This document shows, in pieces, positions 14,811 to 57,705 of a stretch of 64,000 nt of DNA; the stretch's first letter is position 1; each line of letters opens with the position of its first letter. The position numbers and the translations under genes are program-made. Under the pieces are notes generated by a model. It worked only from the letters and a program-made list of their open reading frames with translations. It did no database searches and was not told where the DNA came from. Source of the DNA: Escherichia phage PBECO4; sequence record KC295538; one strand, 5' to 3'.

Positions 14811-15361
14811 AATAGTTCCTTATACATATTATGTACTTTACAAATCTCATTATAGTATTTCATATCAATATCATTTGTATTAAAAACGGAAACAGACAAT
14901 ACCGCTAAATCATCAATGAAGTAATTATTATCGGCGTACTCTTTTAACTTATTGAACATATAGATGCATTTTATACTTAATTCATCATGCAACACACTGT
15001 TCTGAAAAATATTCTCTTCAGTATTAGGAGATAAGTAATCTTCAATTATATACGATAAACTACTATCGCAATCTTTATAGATTGAAATTGATGGATGTAA
15101 TGTGTCATACATTACACAAAACAGATCACCGTCATATGTGGATATTAAACTATTATTGGAAACAGTAGGATGATAATATTTCAGTACTGAAAACTTTGAA
15201 CAATCAGTGCAGTAAAAATGATCCATCCCTCGACGACTTTCGTATGAGAATAGTTTACTTGTATATTCAATCCCTTTGGTGCGACGGATTGTTTCATGCA
15301 TTTCATTGCATTGCATTAAAATTACCATACGTTCAAACGCAAGATCTAAATCATCGTACAT
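14801..15361 (-). CDS. FamA paralog
   Basis: 186 aa; EENIFQNSVLHD. Confidence 0.7.
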   Translation of the reverse strand: MYDDLDLAFERMVILMQCNEMHETIRRTKGIEYTSKLFSYESRRGMDHFYCTDCSKFSVLKYYHPTVSNNSLISTYDGDLFCVMYDTLHPSISIYKDCDSSLSYIIEDYLSPNTEENIFQNSVLHDELSIKCIYMFNKLKEYADNNYFIDDLAVLSVSVFNTNDIDMKYYNEICKVHNMYKELLCQ

Positions 15362-15542
15362 AACGGATATCCTTCTTCAACGAATTAATATATTCTAAAA
15401 TAACTTGTTCTTGGTATTGGGTTCCTAAGTACATCAGTACTTTCAACTCTTTGAATTCAGTACTATATGAGTCTGTTTGCATCATTCTAGTAGAATATAT
15501 ATTGAATAGTTTAGCAATGTCATTTTGGTCTATTATTATCAT
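15351..15542 (-). CDS. FamB paralog (LGTxxQE motif) embedded in FamA array
   Basis: 63 aa; MYLGTQYQEQVI. Confidence 0.6.
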   Translation of the reverse strand: MIIIDQNDIAKLFNIYSTRMMQTDSYSTEFKELKVLMYLGTQYQEQVILEYINSLKKDIRYVR

Positions 15543-15738
15543 ATATTCTCTTCTGGATTAGTTCCTGTAAGTGCTGAATATAACCCTTCATTGCAACATC
15601 CTGTTTGTTAGAGCCAACGAAGAACAAGAGCTTAAAGTCATGGTAATCCATTTTTGGTTTAGTAGTGAACCATATGTCCCACACTGCACTCACAGTTCTC
15701 ATGTATTCAATTCGATTAAATGTTTTTGAATACTTCAT
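15520..15738 (-). CDS. FamB-like paralog embedded in FamA array
   Basis: 72 aa; FFVGSNKQDVAM. Confidence 0.55.
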   Translation of the reverse strand: MKYSKTFNRIEYMRTVSAVWDIWFTTKPKMDYHDFKLLFFVGSNKQDVAMKGYIQHLQELIQKRIYDNNRPK

Positions 15739-21509: not shown

Positions 21510-22061
21510 TCATACATTAACAACTTTATCGATGTAATCTTCTAACATATCAATATATCTGGTATTGGTTCTAACTAAAAGGTATGCAAATCCAGAAAAC
21601 TCCTGTGTATAATGCTTTACAGCGTACATACAACGAAGCTTATCATTGTCATACATTGTACTGTACTGAAACAAACTCTCGTCTGATAGCTCTAATAACG
21701 CTTGGGCTTCACTTCTCGTGAACTTCATAGGGTCATGTACTGCATCACAAAAACAAACCTGTGTCTCGCTATTGAAACCCTGTGATAGATATATACCTTC
21801 ACACTCTGAACGCACCGATACTGCATTATAACTATGTGTTGCCCCCATCATATCTGAACTCAAAACTAAAATCAACCCATTTTTATTTTTAATCAACAAA
21901 TCTGACTTAAGGGATTTGATCTCCGTATGGGAAATATCACCAAATCTTCCTGGGACTTCAAACTTATCAACGTTGTATACAATCTTTTGTACTTGCTCTT
22001 TTAAACGCTTAATTGCACTTCTGTCTTTTTCTAATGTATCTAATAAACTCATTGAACTCAT
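21510..22061 (-). CDS. FamA paralog
   Basis: Start moved to ATG at 22061 (MSSMSLL...); DESLFQYSTMYD. Confidence 0.65.
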   Translation of the reverse strand: MSSMSLLDTLEKDRSAIKRLKEQVQKIVYNVDKFEVPGRFGDISHTEIKSLKSDLLIKNKNGLILVLSSDMMGATHSYNAVSVRSECEGIYLSQGFNSETQVCFCDAVHDPMKFTRSEAQALLELSDESLFQYSTMYDNDKLRCMYAVKHYTQEFSGFAYLLVRTNTRYIDMLEDYIDKVVNV

Positions 22062-27425: not shown

Positions 27426-27812
27426 CTAATCTTTCCATTTAATAGGATACTCCTTTCCTTGTACTATATATGACAAAATCCATCCGTAATGAATAGGATG
27501 ATTTTTATCTGAATCAGGAATAAAATATAAAGCTGTACTTGGATTATGACTGAATAAATCTTTATTGTCAAATGTAAAATGTGATAATATAATTTTCCTT
27601 GTACTTGGACGAATAACATTCTTAACACTGAACTCTGTTCCTTTGTATTTCTCCGAGAATTCAAATAATGCATCTGTAATTAAATCACTGAACTCTTGGA
27701 TTACAAAATTCTGATAAAATGCATTAATCTCTTTTAACTCTGTATACAATTCACTTCTGGTATTCAAAAGGAATATTACTTGTTTAAGATCCTGTACTAT
27801 TGTTGGGTTCAT
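27426..27812 (-). CDS. hypothetical protein
   Basis: 128 aa ORF. Confidence 0.55.
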   Translation of the reverse strand: MNPTIVQDLKQVIFLLNTRSELYTELKEINAFYQNFVIQEFSDLITDALFEFSEKYKGTEFSVKNVIRPSTRKIILSHFTFDNKDLFSHNPSTALYFIPDSDKNHPIHYGWILSYIVQGKEYPIKWKD

Positions 27813-28071
27813 ATTTGTTTATCTCATTATGTACCTTAAGCATAAAAATTTGCATATGAATTTTTTGTTCAAGGTGCTTGATAAATTTCTGTACTGTATC
27901 TTCTTGATCTTTTGTACCAAGATAAAATAACATATTAAATTCAGATAATCTCAGAGAGAAATCTTCCTCTCCCCCTCGTAAACAAAAATCCCTGTACTTT
28001 GAAGCGTACAATAAAGAATCTACCTTTTTATATATTTGGGTCTGCATTGTATCTCCATTTTCAAGGACCAT
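27784..28071 (-). CDS. FamB paralog
   Basis: 95 aa; LFYLGTKDQEDTV. Confidence 0.6.
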   Translation of the reverse strand: MVLENGDTMQTQIYKKVDSLLYASKYRDFCLRGGEEDFSLRLSEFNMLFYLGTKDQEDTVQKFIKHLEQKIHMQIFMLKVHNEINKYEPNNSTGS

Positions 28072-28232
28072 ATGAGCTTATCAACGCATTGATCCTGTGC
28101 TATTGTCCCTAGATAAAATAATACATCAAAATCTGATATTTTGATATTAAAAGGATCGGTGTGTACATTTTTAATAAACTCCCTGTACTTCATTTCATAT
28201 GCATTAGGTATATTCTTATATGTCAATTTCAA
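28020..28232 (-). CDS. FamB paralog
   Basis: 70 aa; LFYLGTIAQDQCV. Confidence 0.6.
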   Translation of the reverse strand: MKLTYKNIPNAYEMKYREFIKNVHTDPFNIKISDFDVLFYLGTIAQDQCVDKLIWSLKMEIQCRPKYIKR

Positions 28233-28533
28233 TGATCCTCCCTGACATACCTTGTATTAGCTTATCATACATATCGAGCATCACTTTTTGAATACTAATT
28301 AGTACTGGCATCGTGCAAATATCAATGTCGTATACTAAGCTGTACTGGAATAATTCATCTTCCTGCATTTGTACTAAATTAGGTAAAAGATAATTGTCTG
28401 CCTCTTCATCCTGGTACTTGAAATGCATAACACCATCCTTTTTGTACAAAAGAATGTCAATATCACCCAACTCTTCGGCATAACCAAATATACATATATT
28501 AGATGTTTTTGCTATATTAAATTTCATCTCCAC
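28216..28533 (-). CDS. FamA paralog (short)
   Basis: 105 aa; EDELFQYSLVYD. Confidence 0.7.
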   Translation of the reverse strand: MEMKFNIAKTSNICIFGYAEELGDIDILLYKKDGVMHFKYQDEEADNYLLPNLVQMQEDELFQYSLVYDIDICTMPVLISIQKVMLDMYDKLIQGMSGRIIEIDI

Positions 28534-28769
28534 CTCTCTCCGTCAGCACAAGAGTACTGGTACGTTGTCGTTAGGGTAGGGACCATGTTCGTAATGGGCA
28601 TGTTGTTAACAATAACCGTAACAGGCATAAGAATCGTCTCTACTCTACTCTGTCCTGTCCTTGTGCAATTCATCTTCTGCATTTCATCTGAATCCATGAA
28701 ATACAATACAAATGGTGCAATCCCAAGAACAATACACAAGACGATAAGGAAATTTAAAAAATTTAACAT
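28524..28769 (-). CDS. small membrane protein (single N-terminal TM helix)
   Basis: 81 aa; hydrophobic FLNFLIVLCIVLGIAPFVLYF. Confidence 0.5.
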   Translation of the reverse strand: MLNFLNFLIVLCIVLGIAPFVLYFMDSDEMQKMNCTRTGQSRVETILMPVTVIVNNMPITNMVPTLTTTYQYSCADGERWR

Positions 28770-28830
28770 AATTTTCTACCCTAATGATTAACGTACAGGT
28801 ACTATATCAGTAATGAAAAGTACTGTCAAG

Positions 28831-29226
28831 CTAGTATTGCACTGTTCTAATGAAAGTACCTTTACTCATGGATTTAAGCTTATGAACCTCTTCCTGTATA
28901 CCCTTGATTAACCCTAAAGGTATAGGTACATCATGTACTAAGCTGTACTGAAAGTATTCTTCTTCAGATAAAGTACTAACATCTGGAACGCCAATTTTAG
29001 TTAGATAATCTTGATGTGTTGACCAATAAATTATATCTTCAGTACTATTGTACTCCCCATATACTGAACAATATTGATGAATATCTTTCCTGTACCCTTG
29101 AGCAATAAAGAACTTATCTACTGCATTACCAGCATTAATAGAATTCACTTCGATTGTCACAGTACTTGAGCTTGTATAACTCTTAATATTATCAGTACTC
29201 AACTGTGTGTTCTTCATAATCACCAT
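28831..29226 (-). CDS. FamA paralog
   Basis: 131 aa; EEEYFQYSLVHD. Confidence 0.7.
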   Translation of the reverse strand: MVIMKNTQLSTDNIKSYTSSSTVTIEVNSINAGNAVDKFFIAQGYRKDIHQYCSVYGEYNSTEDIIYWSTHQDYLTKIGVPDVSTLSEEEYFQYSLVHDVPIPLGLIKGIQEEVHKLKSMSKGTFIRTVQY

Positions 29227-29536
29227 TAGGCTCCTGTTTAGATTCTTTCATTAGTACTATCATCTTATGTACTAATGGCATAGGAAACTCTAAATCCCAT
29301 ACTAATGATTCCTGAAAGTATTCCTCTGGTGATAAAGTACTTAAATCTTTAATATCAACGTGCTTGTATATTTTATTTTCGTAATTAACAAATGATATAT
29401 ATAAATCACTAACATAAGAATCATAGGTAATTGTGAATGGCTTACCCTTGTAATCCATTACATCTCTACATAGACTACTTTTGATATATGTATGTTCAAA
29501 TGATTTATATACCTTGAGTTGTATATTAGTTTTCAT
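29192..29536 (-). CDS. FamA paralog
   Basis: 114 aa; PEEYFQESLVWD. Confidence 0.7.
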   Translation of the reverse strand: MKTNIQLKVYKSFEHTYIKSSLCRDVMDYKGKPFTITYDSYVSDLYISFVNYENKIYKHVDIKDLSTLSPEEYFQESLVWDLEFPMPLVHKMIVLMKESKQEPNGDYEEHTVEY

Positions 29537-29801
29537 ATTTCTCTTTATTAGCTTGTTTGGTTTTATAGTGAATTAAATCTATTAATGTAATCAAGTACAA
29601 CGTCAAATAGTACTCTTGTTGATCTGTACCTAATGATACAAAGAACTTGTGCTCATAGATTAAAACCTGTTTCTCTTCAAATGGACATTTAATCCTCTGT
29701 ATAGGCTTAAGTAAATGATAGTACTTATTAAATCTATGATACATTTCTAGTTCTGTCAGTACTTTCATATTAAACATGTACTCCATTAGCAGTAGCATCA
29801 C
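29526..29801 (-). CDS. FamB paralog
   Basis: 91 aa; FFVSLGTDQQEYY. Confidence 0.6.
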   Translation of the reverse strand: MMLLLMEYMFNMKVLTELEMYHRFNKYYHLLKPIQRIKCPFEEKQVLIYEHKFFVSLGTDQQEYYLTLYLITLIDLIHYKTKQANKEKYEN

Positions 29802-29991
29802 GTAAAGCTGTCAAATACTTCTGTACGGCTTGCTCTTGCTTATTTGTACCTAAAAGTATATACATCCATAATTCACTGTAATGTACATCTTGTGTATAAG
29901 GGTTGTTGTAACTTTTTGATAATATAGCATCAAATTCAGATGCATGAACCCTTGTGAACTTAAGAATATCTTGTTGTGTTATGATTCTCAT
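29770..29991 (-). CDS. FamB paralog
   Basis: 73 aa; YILLGTNKQEQAV. Confidence 0.65.
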   Translation of the reverse strand: MRIITQQDILKFTRVHASEFDAILSKSYNNPYTQDVHYSELWMYILLGTNKQEQAVQKYLTALRDATANGVHV

Positions 29992-30203
29992 ATCTTTTCC
30001 TGAACTATCTGCATAAGAATCCCTATGTGTGAATTAACAGTTCTCTCTTGATGCTGTGTTCCTAAGAGTGTCAGTACTATCATCTCTGAACGCAAAAGAT
30101 TTTTTTCAAGTTCACTTATATCAGTTCTTGAATCAAGTGCCATATATTTGTGATTATTCTTCCTGAATAGTGCCAAGTACTCTTGATTTGATATTTCCTT
30201 CAT
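29988..30203 (-). CDS. FamB paralog
   Basis: 71 aa; LTLLGTQHQERTV. Confidence 0.65.
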   Translation of the reverse strand: MKEISNQEYLALFRKNNHKYMALDSRTDISELEKNLLRSEMIVLTLLGTQHQERTVNSHIGILMQIVQEKI

Positions 30204-30430
30204 AGTTTATTCCTGATGCCATTTAAAAGTGCTCTAATATGCTCATTGACAAATCGCTCTTGGGAATCTGTTCCTAGAGTGAGTAGCAATCTTAAATCTG
30301 AACTTTTGATGTGATATTCTAAATCATTCTTTGATTCTTGCATCAGTTTCTTAAAGGATGAGAAGTTTGCAGCCATTAGTTCAATGTATTCTGCTGTTCC
30401 TAGGGGTTTGTGTGTGTGCTGTCTGTGCAT
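30200..30430 (-). CDS. FamB paralog
   Basis: 76 aa; LTLGTDSQERFV. Confidence 0.65.
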   Translation of the reverse strand: MHRQHTHKPLGTAEYIELMAANFSSFKKLMQESKNDLEYHIKSSDLRLLLTLGTDSQERFVNEHIRALLNGIRNKL

Positions 30431-30642
30431 TTTAATTGTATTACCCTTTTGAGTGTATTAATGTAATTATACACATTGGCTTCTTGATAGTTTGTTCCTA
30501 GAGTAGCTTGAACGTAGATTTCATTTAACTTAATAATTTTATCAGTATCTGGAAGTTTTGATGTGTTAATGGCAAATAACTTCGAAAACAGTCCATTTAT
30601 GATTGTTAGGTATTCTACTTCGGTAATGATTCGCATTTGCAT
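30400..30642 (-). CDS. FamB paralog
   Basis: 80 aa; QATLGTNYQEANV. Confidence 0.65.
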   Translation of the reverse strand: MQMRIITEVEYLTIINGLFSKLFAINTSKLPDTDKIIKLNEIYVQATLGTNYQEANVYNYINTLKRVIQLKCTDSTHTNP

Positions 30643-30854
30643 TGGATAAACCTTTTTAGTTCATTGATGTAATCATTAATATTGCATTCTTGATAGTTAG
30701 TCCCTAGTGTAGCTTGAACATAGATTTCACTTACTAGAATACTTATTTCATCATCTGGTAATTTCATGCTTTTTGTTATAAACAGCTTTAGAATTAAACT
30801 ACTTAATAGTTGGTTGTATTCTGTGGGTGAAATGATTTTCATTTGCATTTGCAT
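30615..30854 (-). CDS. FamB paralog
   Basis: 79 aa; QATLGTNYQECNI. Confidence 0.65.
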   Translation of the reverse strand: MQMQMKIISPTEYNQLLSSLILKLFITKSMKLPDDEISILVSEIYVQATLGTNYQECNINDYINELKRFIQCKCESLPK

Positions 30855-31060
30855 TTTCTCAGTACTGATTCTTTAAGTTCATTAATGTAGCACTCTACAT
30901 ATTCTTCTTGTAGGTTTGTTCCGATATGTAACAGTACTCTTAAATCTGCTCTCAGTACTTCTTTGTCATCTTCATCTATATCAGACAGTGTTATGTTTAA
31001 GAATTTACTTGAACTCTCTATAAGTAATATTACTGAATCACCTTTGCTTAAAATTTTCAT
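30839..31060 (-). CDS. FamB paralog
   Basis: 73 aa; LLHIGTNLQEEYV. Confidence 0.65.
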   Translation of the reverse strand: MKILSKGDSVILLIESSSKFLNITLSDIDEDDKEVLRADLRVLLHIGTNLQEEYVECYINELKESVLRKCKCK

Positions 31061-31268
31061 AATCTCTTTTTGCTTTCCTCGCCAAAAGGTACATATACGA
31101 TTCTTCGTATTGTGCTTGGAAGTTTGTGTTTAAGAGTCGAAACAACTTCTGTTCTGCTAGAACGAGTTGCTTATCTTCATAACAACGGTAGCGTATCAAC
31201 TTTTTGTATTCGATGTTGATTACATCCATTACTATAAGTCCATGTTCATCATCTGTCAAGTGTTTCAT
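31038..31268 (-). CDS. FamB paralog
   Basis: 76 aa; FRLLNTNFQAQYE. Confidence 0.6.
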   Translation of the reverse strand: MKHLTDDEHGLIVMDVINIEYKKLIRYRCYEDKQLVLAEQKLFRLLNTNFQAQYEESYMYLLARKAKRDYENFKQR

Positions 31269-31507
31269 GCATTTTTTCTTTTTCTTATATGTTTAGTTAA
31301 AAGGTATATTAGTTTTCTGATGTATTCTTCCTGATAGTTTGTTCCTAGGAGTGCAAGAAGTTTTGCTTCAACTAAAGCTAATTGACGTTCTTCGAATGTG
31401 TGTTCCAGTATGTACTTGGGGTTTGATTTTTTAGAAATTGCACTATTAGTTTTCATTACAATCGTATGATATTCATTAACTGTTAGGATTTTTAAATTCT
31501 TGAGCAT
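31265..31507 (-). CDS. FamB paralog
   Basis: 80 aa; LALLGTNYQEEYI. Confidence 0.65.
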   Translation of the reverse strand: MLKNLKILTVNEYHTIVMKTNSAISKKSNPKYILEHTFEERQLALVEAKLLALLGTNYQEEYIRKLIYLLTKHIRKRKNA

Positions 31508-31727
31508 GTATCTTTTCCTTTATAGAGAATTTAAGATATCGAAGCATACTTTCAATGTAATACTCTTGTCTGTCAGTGCCAAGAAAGTACATGAGTTGAA
31601 TGTATAAAACTTCTGCACTCCTTTCGGCATGTGACTTGTTTGTGTCGTTTGGAAGTTGATTTGTAAGTTTTCTGGATTTAATTAGTCGTTCTTTTAACTC
31701 ATCGTCTGTTAAGTATTTCATTTGCAT
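31476..31727 (-). CDS. FamB paralog
   Basis: 83 aa; MYFLGTDRQEYYI. Confidence 0.65.
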   Translation of the reverse strand: MQMKYLTDDELKERLIKSRKLTNQLPNDTNKSHAERSAEVLYIQLMYFLGTDRQEYYIESMLRYLKFSIKEKIHAQEFKNPNS

Positions 31728-31953
31728 TTACTTTTTCCTTAATAGTGATTTTAAGATATCTAATCATACGTGCAACATATTCCTCTTGTCTATCAGTTCC
31801 AAGAAGGTATGGTAGTGATTGGAATAAAACTTCTGCACTCCTTTCGGCAGGGGTTTGGTTTAGGTCAATTGGACGTTTATTGGTATATCTCTTGGCACGA
31901 ACTAATCTCTCGACGTATTCATTATAGGTTAAGTATATCATTTCATTTTGCAT
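31699..31953 (-). CDS. FamB paralog
   Basis: 84 aa; PYLLGTDRQEEYV. Confidence 0.65.
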   Translation of the reverse strand: MQNEMIYLTYNEYVERLVRAKRYTNKRPIDLNQTPAERSAEVLFQSLPYLLGTDRQEEYVARMIRYLKITIKEKVNANEILNRR

Positions 31954-32169
31954 TTACATTCTCTCATGTACATCCTGGGTTAAAAGATCAATCCAGATTT
32001 CCACATATCGTTGTTGGTGTTGCGTCCCTAATAGTACACCCAACTTAGCTTCACACTCTAATAACAATCTGGTTTTGTATGGTAGACTTTGGAATCCTAT
32101 AGTAGCATCTAATTTGGTAATTGCATAGTTGATTCGGATGAATCTTTCTTGCAATGTGATGTTGATCAT
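31954..32169 (-). CDS. FamB paralog
   Basis: 71 aa; GVLLGTQHQQRYV. Confidence 0.65.
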   Translation of the reverse strand: MINITLQERFIRINYAITKLDATIGFQSLPYKTRLLLECEAKLGVLLGTQHQQRYVEIWIDLLTQDVHERM

Positions 32170-32429
32170 TTCTTAGTACACCTCAGTGGTTGGGTCATTT
32201 GATGAAAGTACAGCTTACCTCTGATTTCCAGTAGCAACTCCGCGATTAAGCGATTTACTTCTGTATCTTGATAGTTTGTTCCTAAGAATACACCCATCTT
32301 TAACTCACGCATCATAATCATTTTCTTACTGTGTTGAATTTCTGGGTTGTGATAGATTGTATTACGTTTGTGCGTAATTTTTGTCATACGCTCGGTATAT
32401 TCATCTTTACTTAAATTGATCATTTGCAT
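32166..32429 (-). CDS. FamB paralog
   Basis: Start moved to ATG at 32429 (MQMINLSKDEY); GVFLGTNYQDTEV. Confidence 0.65.
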   Translation of the reverse strand: MQMINLSKDEYTERMTKITHKRNTIYHNPEIQHSKKMIMMRELKMGVFLGTNYQDTEVNRLIAELLLEIRGKLYFHQMTQPLRCTKK

Positions 32430-32458
32430 GTTAATTACCCTTACATTTATTTTCAATA

Positions 32459-32698
32459 CTATTCTTTAGTTTGTAGATATAGTTTTCTTCCAATGTATCT
32501 CTTAAGTGCGATTATGTATTCATCTACATAATACTCCTGATAGTTTGTTCCTATGAATGCACCCACCTTTAACTCAAGTTTCATAATCATCTTATTTCCG
32601 TGTTTAATGACTTCTCCGTGATGGATTTCATTAAGTCCAGGTGCAATTTTTACCAGGCGTTCTTTATATTTTGCTTGAGATAATTTAATCATTTTCAT
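32459..32698 (-). CDS. FamB paralog
   Basis: Start moved to ATG at 32698 (MKMIKLSQAKY); GAFIGTNYQEYYV. Confidence 0.65.
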   Translation of the reverse strand: MKMIKLSQAKYKERLVKIAPGLNEIHHGEVIKHGNKMIMKLELKVGAFIGTNYQEYYVDEYIIALKRYIGRKLYLQTKE

Positions 32699-32699
32699 G

Positions 32700-32930
32700 T
32701 TAATTACCCTTACATTTATTTTCAATACTATTCATGAGTTCTATAAGATAGTTTTCTACCTTACCTTCCTGATAGTTAGTCCCTAGGAAGTTGCACAACA
32801 CGGCTTCTATGATTTTGATTTTCCTGATATCAGGCTTCAATCTTTTGTTATTGAATATTTGAATCCTTATATCTCTGGATGCATTTAAACGTTTTTGATA
32901 TTCATGGTAAGTTAAATTAATCATTTTCAT
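32700..32930 (-). CDS. FamB paralog
   Basis: 76 aa; CNFLGTNYQEGKV. Confidence 0.65.
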   Translation of the reverse strand: MKMINLTYHEYQKRLNASRDIRIQIFNNKRLKPDIRKIKIIEAVLCNFLGTNYQEGKVENYLIELMNSIENKCKGN

Positions 32931-33145
32931 TTACGTTTAACCTCTCGCTGGAGGGCATCAATTAACATCAGTACAGCATTCTCTTGATAGTTTGTTCCTA
33001 AGACTGAAAGCATCTTTATCTCATTTACTAAAATCAACTTCTTTGAGGGTTCAATAATGTGACTATCATAAACGGCCTTACGTGCTGGATAAGTTTTCGC
33101 CAGTATAACATAAAATTCGTCTTTACTTAAATTAATCATTTGCAT
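32927..33145 (-). CDS. FamB paralog
   Basis: 72 aa; LSVLGTNYQENAV. Confidence 0.65.
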   Translation of the reverse strand: MQMINLSKDEFYVILAKTYPARKAVYDSHIIEPSKKLILVNEIKMLSVLGTNYQENAVLMLIDALQREVKRK

Positions 33146-33354
33146 TTACTTTTAACCTCTTTCTGTAGAGCGTCAATCCATAGATCTACATACATTTGTT
33201 GATAGTTTGTGCCTAAGAGTGCACCTACATAGAGTTCAGTTACTAGTGCGTGCTTAAGGTTAGCTTGGATGCTCTTATCGCTTGATAAGATTTTCCTTCT
33301 GCTGGTGCATGTTTTCAGGAGTCTGATGTATTCAAAGCCTTGTAATTTTCTCAT
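33136..33354 (-). CDS. FamB paralog
   Basis: 72 aa; GALLGTNYQQMYV. Confidence 0.65.
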   Translation of the reverse strand: MRKLQGFEYIRLLKTCTSRRKILSSDKSIQANLKHALVTELYVGALLGTNYQQMYVDLWIDALQKEVKSKCK

Positions 33355-33566
33355 TCTTTTGATATCACCTTGTTACGTAAGGCACTTAACAATACGTCAG
33401 TGTAGATGTTTTGATAGTTTGTCCCTACGAAAGCACCCAACTTCATTTCAGCTATTATAACACATTTGTCCTCTTGTGCAATAGATTTGTTTAACACAAT
33501 ACTATACACTTTTGATTTGATAGTTTGTAACCTCCAATGATACTGATACTCATTAAGGATTATCAT
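33351..33566 (-). CDS. FamB paralog
   Basis: 71 aa; GAFVGTNYQNIYT. Confidence 0.65.
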   Translation of the reverse strand: MIILNEYQYHWRLQTIKSKVYSIVLNKSIAQEDKCVIIAEMKLGAFVGTNYQNIYTDVLLSALRNKVISKE

Positions 33567-33801
33567 TCTCTTTCCTCCAGATTTCGGTTCTCATGTGTTG
33601 GCAGTGTGCTTCGATGAACATATCTATTGATTTGGCAATTGCGTTTTTATCAGTGCCTGTCATCAGTACAAGCATCTCTGCCTCACTATGAATTAAACGC
33701 ATGATATCATAGGGTAATATTTCAGATACAGTGTCATAGTGTTTCTGTGCCAGTGTCTGCAATAGTTTACAATACATTTTGTGATTTAGTCTTTGTCGCA
33801 T
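33553..33801 (-). CDS. FamB-like paralog (divergent)
   Basis: 82 aa; LVLMTGTDKNAIA. Confidence 0.5.
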   Translation of the reverse strand: MRQRLNHKMYCKLLQTLAQKHYDTVSEILPYDIMRLIHSEAEMLVLMTGTDKNAIAKSIDMFIEAHCQHMRTEIWRKENDNP

Positions 33802-34058
33802 TGTTTATTCCATTCTTTTTTGGCTCTATGGGTTTTATATTGGATTTGGTTTCTCAATGCTGCCAGGTATCGTAGAATGAACAGTTCTTGATAGTTTGTT
33901 CCAATGAATTTCATAAGATAAACATCACCGTTGATAACATCCAATTCAGGTGCACCATGTAATGTATAGTTTTTTCTAAGGGTGTTAAGAATAGAGAAGA
34001 GGGCGGTTTGATACTCAGAGCTTGATAAAGTTTTCATATTTTTCCACAATTCGTTCAT
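33786..34058 (-). CDS. FamB paralog
   Basis: 90 aa; MKFIGTNYQELFI. Confidence 0.65.
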   Translation of the reverse strand: MNELWKNMKTLSSSEYQTALFSILNTLRKNYTLHGAPELDVINGDVYLMKFIGTNYQELFILRYLAALRNQIQYKTHRAKKEWNKQCDKD

Positions 34059-34272
34059 TTAGTTTTATCTGTATAAGATCCATTAGTTGTTCAAGATAAT
34101 CGGTACAATATTTCTCTTGATATTGGGTTCCCACAAAGTACAGCAACCATAGCTCATGAACTTTAACTTTCATCTCGTTCCATGAAAGTGCATCGTCATC
34201 GTAGATTACTCTTGCTTCTGGGGTGAGCTTTCGAATTCTAAGTGAATATTCATCGTTCGTCAAGTGTTTCAT
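34015..34272 (-). CDS. FamB paralog
   Basis: 85 aa; LYFVGTQYQEKYC. Confidence 0.65.
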   Translation of the reverse strand: MKHLTNDEYSLRIRKLTPEARVIYDDDALSWNEMKVKVHELWLLYFVGTQYQEKYCTDYLEQLMDLIQIKLNERIVEKYENFIKL

Positions 34273-34273
34273 T

Positions 34274-34428
34274 TACATTTATCCCTTATTAGATTTGTGA
34301 GTGCAACTATGTGTTCATGGATATAAAAATTCTGATGAGAAGTTCCAAGAAAGTACAACATCCCTCCCTCACTCTGCTCGACTTCTAGTTTAGTATCGAG
34401 TTGGTCAGATATGTTAATGAAAACCATT
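34274..34428 (-). CDS. FamB paralog (51 aa, below track cutoff)
   Basis: ATG ORF MVFINISDQ...MLYFLGTSHQNFYI; ATGA overlap with upstream gene. Confidence 0.5.
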
Positions 34429-34651
34429 AGTTCTTTTCCTTTCTTTCTATTTGTTTCATAAGAACATTGATATACTCACCCGCAAACCTATTCTGATACT
34501 GCGTCCCCATGAATTCCAACATCCATACTTCAGCAACCTTTTCTTCAATTTCAGTCCATTGTAAGTACATCATAGTGAAGTAAATGGTGTTCTCTTTTTT
34601 TCTGGCACTCTTAGCACGGGCCTCGTATTCAAAGTTATTAATGATGTTCAT
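34427..34651 (-). CDS. FamB paralog
   Basis: Start moved to ATG at 34651 (MNIINNFEYE); LEFMGTQYQNRFA. Confidence 0.6.
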   Translation of the reverse strand: MNIINNFEYEARAKSARKKENTIYFTMMYLQWTEIEEKVAEVWMLEFMGTQYQNRFAGEYINVLMKQIERKEKN

Positions 34652-34865
34652 TACATTTGTCCATAATGTAATTCTTGAGTGCAACTATGTGTGCAATAAC
34701 ATACTCTTCCTGGAAGTTCGTCCCCAGTACAGCCATCATGCGTTTATCGGTGGTGTTTATCCTGTGTTCCCTTACACATAAACCTTCTTTGTGAGGAAGT
34801 GTAAAATATTTGTTTATTGCAGCAACGATAATTTTATTCTTCTCGGAGTTACTTAAATGTTTCAT
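34638..34865 (-). CDS. FamB paralog
   Basis: 75 aa; MAVLGTNFQEEYV. Confidence 0.65.
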   Translation of the reverse strand: MKHLSNSEKNKIIVAAINKYFTLPHKEGLCVREHRINTTDKRMMAVLGTNFQEEYVIAHIVALKNYIMDKCNEHH

Positions 34866-35074
34866 AGTTTACTCCTGATATAATTCTGAAGTGCAATTAA
34901 GTATTCCCCTACATAATACACCTGAAAGTCTGTATCAAGGAATGCACCCATAAGTAAATCTTTTTCTAATACCCTTGATAAGTTAAGGTCTGCATTTGAA
35001 AGGTATATAAGTAAGATTTCACCCTGTGCGGAATTGAAACGTTTCTTATATTCTTCTGGTGTTAAAAAAATCAT
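34862..35074 (-). CDS. FamB paralog
   Basis: 70 aa; GAFLDTDFQVYYV. Confidence 0.6.
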   Translation of the reverse strand: MIFLTPEEYKKRFNSAQGEILLIYLSNADLNLSRVLEKDLLMGAFLDTDFQVYYVGEYLIALQNYIRSKL

Positions 35075-35286
35075 AATTTGCTCCTGATATATTTCTCAAG
35101 AGATGACAAATACTTTTCCTCATAATACTTCTGATAGTCTGTTCCTAAGAATGCACCCAATAGTATATCATTTTCCAATACCTCGGCTAAGTTTAAATCA
35201 GAAGTCTCTTCGTATATTATGAGGATTTCAAGTTGTCTGGCAGCGATGCGTTCAGTATATTGATATGAGTTTTCTATAATAATCAT
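35071..35286 (-). CDS. FamB paralog
   Basis: 71 aa; GAFLGTDYQKYYE. Confidence 0.65.
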   Translation of the reverse strand: MIIIENSYQYTERIAARQLEILIIYEETSDLNLAEVLENDILLGAFLGTDYQKYYEEKYLSSLEKYIRSKL

Positions 35287-35492
35287 AATTTACTCTTTAT
35301 ATCTTGAATTAAAAATCGAATCCATTCTTCAACATAATCTTCCTGATGGTTTGTGTTCAGTACAGCCAACATGCGGATCTCTGCTCTTGCAACTTCAATT
35401 TCAGTTTTAGGAAGGTCTTTGCTGATATCCACCATTAAGTCCATGTATTTCAAGATAAGACCGTATGATTGGGTTCGTGTTATAGTTTTCAT
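35283..35492 (-). CDS. FamB paralog
   Basis: 69 aa; LAVLNTNHQEDYV. Confidence 0.6.
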   Translation of the reverse strand: MKTITRTQSYGLILKYMDLMVDISKDLPKTEIEVARAEIRMLAVLNTNHQEDYVEEWIRFLIQDIKSKL

Positions 35493-35689
35493 TGTTTCCT
35501 CGTGGACAATATTTTATTTTTCAATGTATCCATATATTGAATCACCCATCTTTCCTGATAGTTAGTTCCCAAAGTAATCAAAAGGTATAACTCCATTCGT
35601 TCTACGTGTGTGTCTGTATTATAAATCTTTGTGAAGTTTTTACGTAACAGTGATTGATATTCTTCTTTATTTAAAATACGCATTTTCAT
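35489..35689 (-). CDS. FamB paralog
   Basis: 66 aa; ITLGTNYQERWV. Confidence 0.65.
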   Translation of the reverse strand: MKMRILNKEEYQSLLRKNFTKIYNTDTHVERMELYLLITLGTNYQERWVIQYMDTLKNKILSTRKQ

Positions 35690-35883
35690 AGTTTACTCGT
35701 TATATCTTCAATTAAATACCAAATCCAATCGTTGACATACCTTTCCTGAAAGTTAGTTCCAATGAATAGTGCCATAATTAATTCACGCTTATAGGCAATA
35801 CCACGGTCATGGGACTTATACATTATCATAGCCATGTTATTGATAAGTCTTTCGTGGTGCTGTTCTTTAGTTAAAATACGCAT
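35686..35883 (-). CDS. FamB paralog
   Basis: 65 aa; LFIGTNFQERYV. Confidence 0.65.
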   Translation of the reverse strand: MRILTKEQHHERLINNMAMIMYKSHDRGIAYKRELIMALFIGTNFQERYVNDWIWYLIEDITSKL

Positions 35884-35916: not shown

Positions 35917-35942
35917 CATCATACCCCATGTGAGGCATGATG
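35917..35942 (-). terminator. intrinsic terminator
   Basis: catcataccccatgtgaggcatgatg hairpin followed on minus strand by T6. Confidence 0.5.
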
Positions 35943-35969
35943 TCAAGATGTTTTGTTCATATAAATGCA

Positions 35970-57077: not shown

Positions 57078-57705
57078 TAGCTTTCTTTCATTATTCAGTA
57101 CTGATATTCTTGAGAACTACCCGACTACAAACATCATTATATCCCACAAATCATAAACGTCCCAACGTAAATTTCAACTTTCGAAGATCCAACTTTTATT
57201 TCATAGGTACTCCAAAATTTTTAGGATCGAGATTTAGGATGGAGTACTAACCAACTTTTTGCTGGAGCCTCAAGGGGTAATGGAATTTTACCCCGAAGGG
57301 TAAAGGGGTAATTGAAATTAAGGTGAAAGTAATAATTCAGTACTAATCATTGCGTGATTACTTTTGATTACATTTGATGTAATTTGAAAAATGGAAAAGG
57401 AGCTTGGAAACTACAAAGTACGGCAGACTTCCTCTGCCTACTTAGTGGCATATCAGTACTGAATCCTTCCCGTGCATTCTTGAGCATTCTTGTCTATACT
57501 AATCAGTACTGAATCATATATAATCATTCTGTGATTCTACGGTGCTCATATAAATGTTTATATATGATTACTTATGACTACCTATGATTACGGGGTTTAG
57601 CCTGGGGAGAATCCTAGTGATCGCATTTGTCCAGGCTGAATTTTAACAATTCGCCTGTACATAAAGGTTGTTCACTAGGAGCTTCCCCTGTCTACTTGTG
57701 TTTAA

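Follow-up and report, generated by a model that had tools for sequence, protein, structure and literature searches.

Diverged paralogs of one small protein family form a long gene array beside the terminal repeat of an Asteriusvirus jumbo coliphage

Gene content of the locus

The window analysed here, a stretch of 64,000 nucleotides of Escherichia phage PBECO4 (KC295538), derives from an Asteriusvirus jumbo coliphage of the PBECO4/121Q/G17 group. It contains 33 ORFs of a single protein family, all on the minus strand: 29 consecutive genes at 29526-35883, two at 27784-28232 and two at 15351-15738. The first-pass annotation had counted about 31 members; the total is 33, degenerate member and both distal copies included. 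The main run, as delimited by the ORF list, HMM and leave-one-out E-values, the family alignment and ATGA-type junctions, comprises, in transcription order, genes 1-6 (35686-35883, 35489-35689, 35283-35492, 35071-35286, 34862-35074 and 34638-34865), genes 7-12 (34427-34684, 34269-34427, 34015-34272, 33786-34058, 33553-33801 and 33351-33566), genes 13-18 (33136-33354, 32927-33145, 32700-32930, 32459-32725, 32166-32456 and 31954-32169), genes 19-24 (31699-31953, 31476-31727, 31265-31507, 31038-31268, 30839-31060 and 30615-30854) and genes 25-29 (30400-30642, 30200-30430, 29988-30203, 29770-29991 and 29526-29801).

Gene 11 (33553-33801) is degenerate. It matches the family HMM with an E-value of 0.027 and stays in register in the family alignment, with the motif MTGTDKNAIAKS, a 6-residue insertion and the conserved Q missing. 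This gene nevertheless appears to be still under selection, since its ortholog in phage vB_Ec-M-J is 91% identical, with a dN/dS of 0.21.

The array had been described as uninterrupted from 27784 to 35883. This is true of the 29 genes of the main run, but four minus-strand ORFs that do not match the family HMM occupy positions 28216-29536. Three of them (28216-28533, 28831-29226 and 29192-29536) belong to another family, characterised by the motif EEYFQxSLVxD, and the fourth (28524-28769) encodes a predicted membrane-anchored protein of 81 aa. The interrupting ORFs match PHROG 13866 and PHROG 8826, both without annotated function. Downstream of this interruption lie two more family genes, 28020-28232 and 27784-28071 (leave-one-out E-values of 2.5e-8 and 2.6e-9), which are mutual best paralogs. 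The two distal genes, 15520-15738 and 15351-15542, sit amid larger paralog families, and a distal copy is also present in JNE01, Turkey5 and the distant contig L010.

As previously noticed, the array is nearly solid coding sequence: its genes mostly join through 4-nt ATGA overlaps, and a stretch of 61 nt (28770-28830) is the sole intergenic gap. This gap carries a candidate promoter for the 28524-28769 ORF, a pattern match at 28829-28801. Of the 31 family genes at 27784-35883, 15 have a Shine-Dalgarno-like motif ahead of the start, versus a background of 7.9%. The recurrent 'MQM' start reported earlier comes from the conserved DNA of the junctions (AAATGCAAATGA) and may not be the true N-terminus. 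Sizes of 65-95 aa had been reported, but several lengths of 85-96 aa stem from longest-ORF calls with TTG or GTG starts; the conserved domain begins at an internal M-x-x-L and measures ~65-80 aa.

An old paralog family of narrow distribution

An HMM seeded with 30 of these ORFs recovered all its seeds as well as the two distal copies kept outside the seed (E-values of 1.8e-7 for 15520-15738 and 2.5e-14 for 15351-15542). Among 4,410 shuffled ORFs, the best match had an E-value of 0.08 and none fell below it. In leave-one-out profiles, each member still matched the rest (E-values from 2.5e-8 to 2.7e-22), and single-linkage clustering of BLAST matches produced a 31-member cluster, the largest of the window. 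The expanded paralog family perceived by the first-pass annotation is thus real and far above chance. Residues G59, T60, Q63 and L74 are at least 90% invariant in the family alignment. The closest pair of paralogs shares 57% identity across the full length, and paralog likeness is highest between adjacent genes (rho -0.17, p 0.003). At the DNA level, repetition is limited to the motif-coding stretch (60-77% identity) and Tandem Repeats Finder detected no array at the locus, indicating that the duplications are old. The predicted isoelectric points extend from 4.4 to 9.9; about half of the members are basic and many are acidic (pI 4.4-5.7).

Judging from profile matches, the family corresponds to the already catalogued PHROG 4148, annotated as 'unknown function'. 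This profile is matched by 32 of the 33 members (best E-value 1.3e-26, positions 1-72 of 74), and also by the fusion proteins P0137, P0138 and P0157; 15 members match in addition PHROG 28039, a sub-cluster of PHROG 4148. The PHROG 4148 entry comes with no function, structure or genomic description. Neither sequence nor fold searches matched the family to any entry in Pfam, NCBIfam, PADLOC or the PDB, and clear homology to a characterised family, sought because the first-pass annotation had not recognised the family, was not found. Members occur only in Asteriusvirus and in uncultured close relatives. Two points are new with respect to the PHROG entry, namely the arrangement of 20-31 copies in an array adjoining the terminal repeat and this restricted distribution; neither is mentioned in the Asteriusvirus literature that we searched.

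Predicted fold and conservation pattern

The small helical fold anticipated from the sequence was recovered by AlphaFold2, which modelled a family member as a three-helix bundle (pLDDT 93.9; helices at residues 17-36, 42-56 and 63-87). Independent BFVD models of other members superpose on it with a TM score of 0.95. The low-entropy columns of the alignment correspond to core residues and to helix starts, the latter with the motifs L-(T/S)-x-x-E-Y and L-G-T-N-Y-Q-E. Substitutions between orthologs follow a helical periodicity, with 0-0.08 per core column versus 0.20-0.26 on exposed faces. On the predicted structure, the conserved residues build the fold itself (hydrophobic core and two helix-start motifs), almost every exposed position being variable.

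Evolution of the array between phages

Orthologs of the family genes are under purifying selection, yet they evolve faster than neighbouring genes: their dN/dS is 0.31-0.35 versus 0.17-0.23 for the neighbours, and their protein identity 83-84% versus 94-95%. Identity per gene ranges from 44% to 100% inside a single genome pair. The dN/dS is below 1 for nearly all ortholog pairs, the two values above 1 resting on 1.5 and 3.0 synonymous changes, and these ratios provide no statistical proof of diversifying selection.

The number of copies varies between phages (20, 21, 25, 27, 29, 30, 30, 31 and 31 in nine phages), and genomes that are 98-99% identical differ by unit-sized deletions of 332-410 bp. 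The SD phages, which infect Salmonella, carry 27 copies with 99% identity. In JNE01, 18 of the 20 copies are nearer to a copy of the window than to their own paralogs, and one-to-one orthologs are kept between subclades whose copies share just 30-50% identity. At least 13 copies are present in L010, which belongs to a distant uncultured phage and has no DNA similarity to the window. Relaxed constraint combined with recombination would be another explanation consistent with this fast divergence and cassette-like mosaicism.

Unrelated paralog families in the neighbourhood are equally divergent between subclades, so these dynamics may be regional rather than specific to the family.

Terminal repeat, promoters and virion proteome

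In phage Sharanji, long direct terminal repeats (DTRs) of ~21 kb have been measured; for fEgEco12, restriction digests provided the confirmation (PMC11895373, PMC13070987). In vB_Ec-M-J, the DTR is annotated at positions 1-21525 and the array starts at 21624 on the same strand. Alignment to this annotated DTR places its homolog at 36476-57442 of the window (minus strand), with boundaries that are thus set by homology. Position 57442 corresponds to position 1 of the vB_Ec-M-J record, i.e., to the physical left end of the genome, and the head of the array (35883) lies outside the repeat, ~0.6 kb from its inner boundary at ~36476. The array is transcribed in the same direction as all DTR genes.

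Small genes fill the DTR region, and every one of them has its own consensus sigma-70 promoter and terminator. The region contains 91 promoter-like sites versus 61.7 +/- 6.2 in shuffled sequences, including nine perfect consensus matches; two further perfect ones lie at 38-40 kb, and the minus (coding) strand carries all 11. Between 26.5 and 40.5 kb, such sites are not in excess (68 versus 66.8 in shuffles). All these promoters were called by pattern matching in a sequence rich in AT. A candidate sigma-70-like promoter (TTGACA-17 nt-TATGAT, 11 of 12 consensus positions by pattern only) is present at the array head (35918-35946, minus strand), its -10 hexamer ending 34 nt upstream of the start codon of the first family gene. 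At this place, five relatives share another promoter, with TTGACT, and the Shine-Dalgarno sequence AAGGGAG.

In phAPEC6, the late-promoter motif ATAAATA occurs 16 times in 50 kb of structural genes, and it is located 23-71 nt upstream, on the gene's own strand, in 13 of 37 structural genes. The 64-kb window contains ATAAATA once (47 +/- 7 expected) and TATAAATA not at all (14 +/- 4 expected), and the motif scan found no copy of the late-promoter motif in the array. The phAPEC6 orthologs gp461-gp489 are absent from a table of 62 virion proteins identified by mass spectrometry, which is good but not absolute evidence that members are absent from the virion, as very small proteins can escape mass spectrometry.

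Proposed function and alternatives

We propose, with a probability of about one half, that the array encodes an early, non-virion repertoire of host-interaction binders built on one scaffold. Old tandem duplications with ongoing turnover would have produced a multigene family of soluble three-helix-bundle proteins of ~65-80 aa, most copies probably forming one tight, translationally coupled operon ~0.6 kb past the inner edge of the left ~21-kb DTR. Host sigma-70 RNA polymerase would most likely transcribe this operon early, from the head promoter or by read-through from the repeat; late promoters would not be used and the products would stay out of the virion. Each paralog may be kept for a separate host-protein partner, serving host takeover or the neutralisation of defence or exclusion factors. 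We read the ~30 paralogs as a repertoire of binders because the conserved residues build the fold and leave the exposed positions free to vary; early expression, the binding role and the nature of the targets are the parts that we infer. The fold itself is generic, and none of the known takeover or anti-defence proteins resembles it.

A more elaborate version of this proposal, which we regard as unlikely, is a combinatorial library in which a conserved face docks on a common machine and variable helix faces recruit different host proteins. The docking face might be composed of the N-terminal strand, the G-T-N-x-Q-E turn and residues E19/E51/K81, and candidates for the machine, of phage or host origin, include a protease, a kinase and any other modifying enzyme that the terminal repeat encodes. 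On each paralog, the hypervariable faces would then recruit another host protein or another allele of a polymorphic defence protein, and the ~30 copies would be interchangeable adaptors, reshuffled among phages through cassette exchange.

A special case of host interaction, unlikely in our opinion, is that the proteins are immunity, antitoxin-like or exclusion factors directed against other mobile elements or competing phages, either decoy antitoxins against host abortive-infection toxins or a superinfection-exclusion set. Orphan immunity-gene clusters are typically arrays of diverged copies, a layout that the present array resembles by analogy; its members are small, soluble and helical, the locus exhibits cassette-like mosaicism and it embeds a conserved, predicted membrane-anchored protein. 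However, no sequence or fold likeness to colicin-type immunity proteins, antitoxins, known defence-system components or any PADLOC model was found, and the array has no evident toxin partner gene.

We consider it improbable that the paralogs, instead of binding the host independently, assemble with each other into a hetero-oligomer or a lattice of helical bundles acting as an early scaffold, compartment or decoy particle. The arrangement of ~29 genes in one ATGA-overlap operon would favour coupled, roughly equal synthesis, pairing is common among three-helix bundles and a natural two-domain fusion of adjacent paralogs is known (P0001). AlphaFold2, however, did not pack the domains of this natural fusion confidently (pLDDT 70, pTM 0.51), a weak test because the alignment is thin for one half. 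A fixed assembly would also poorly tolerate copy numbers of 20-31 with single units lost between near-identical phages. In addition, the exposed faces vary freely and the pI extends from 4.4 to 9.9.

No greater chance is given to the idea that the array is largely dispensable filler, i.e., a by-product of frequent unequal recombination beside the terminal repeat that jumbo capsids tolerate, with no distinct adaptive role for each copy. The higher rate and more relaxed constraint relative to neighbouring genes, the common unit deletions and the several other paralog families crowding the same region are in line with it. Filler would hardly account for conserved core positions and a dN/dS that stays far under 1 in almost all ortholog pairs, for one-to-one orthologs retained across such divergent subclades, for the multi-copy state kept in L010, or for intact reading frames and maintained Shine-Dalgarno signals.

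Finally, DNA- or RNA-binding regulators of the phage programme (helix-turn-helix-like repressors or sigma/anti-sigma modulators timing the early-to-middle switch) are very improbable: the array is located in the presumed regulatory early region, about half of its products are basic and helix 2-Gly-helix 3 with its 'LG(T)' superficially recalls a helix-turn-helix, but no helix-turn-helix domain was matched in sequence or fold and no sigma or anti-sigma domain in Pfam and NCBIfam, helix 3, with its 25 residues making up the core of the bundle, is not a recognition helix, many members are acidic, and thirty regulators far exceed what a temporal switch needs.

About 30 diverged copies of one gene in a row are exceptional among bacteriophages. 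If they do encode early host-interaction proteins, they represent a natural library with dozens of surface variants on one very small, confidently modelled scaffold, and with clear orthologs and natural knock-outs in more than 30 sequenced phages, all of which would make the array unusually tractable. It offers an entry point to the roles of the many small early genes of jumbo phages and to the expansion and exchange of phage gene families beside terminal repeats. The array is of interest for phage therapy as well: Asteriusvirus phages have been put forward as therapeutic agents, with over 80% of their genes still unannotated.

Comparison with known systems

The T5 pre-early genes and the 'Tre' genes of Herelleviridae lie inside long terminal repeats, in the first-expressed DNA, and encode many small host-takeover proteins. 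Long direct terminal repeats are thus a shared feature, but in those phages the genes are within the repeat and do not make up one expanded family. Two-step DNA entry belongs to the T5 side of this comparison; the UE-S1 paper classified the ends as 'long-ended T5 type'.

In the Bacillus phage SPO1, the terminal redundancy contains a host-takeover module of 26 small early genes, and the proteins they encode shut down host processes or divert them (Stewart et al., 1998; PMC6873191). Both systems have very small genes clustered at a direct terminal repeat, host-sigma promoters (predicted here) and non-structural products. The SPO1 genes, however, are inside the repeat and mutually unrelated, whereas the array is outside it and forms a gap-free operon of one paralog family, such that the DTR genes of PBECO4 are the better counterpart of the SPO1 module.

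Terminal multigene families are also found in large eukaryotic viruses, i.e., MGF110/360/505 of ASFV and the terminal host-range families of poxviruses with their 'gene accordions', which have a demonstrated role in host range or immune evasion. In these viruses, as in the array, diverged paralogs beside terminal repeats vary in copy number from isolate to isolate through gains and losses of units, evolve faster than the genome core and encode non-structural products. The viruses, hosts and folds are unrelated, so the likeness lies in how the genomes behave, by analogy rather than homology; the role demonstrated there is inferred for the array, and recent high-identity amplification, the strict 'accordion', is not seen in the array, where even the closest paralogs have diverged to 57% identity. 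If the proteins did operate as a combinatorial binder library, the array would be a bacterial-virus counterpart to these multigene immune-evasion families.

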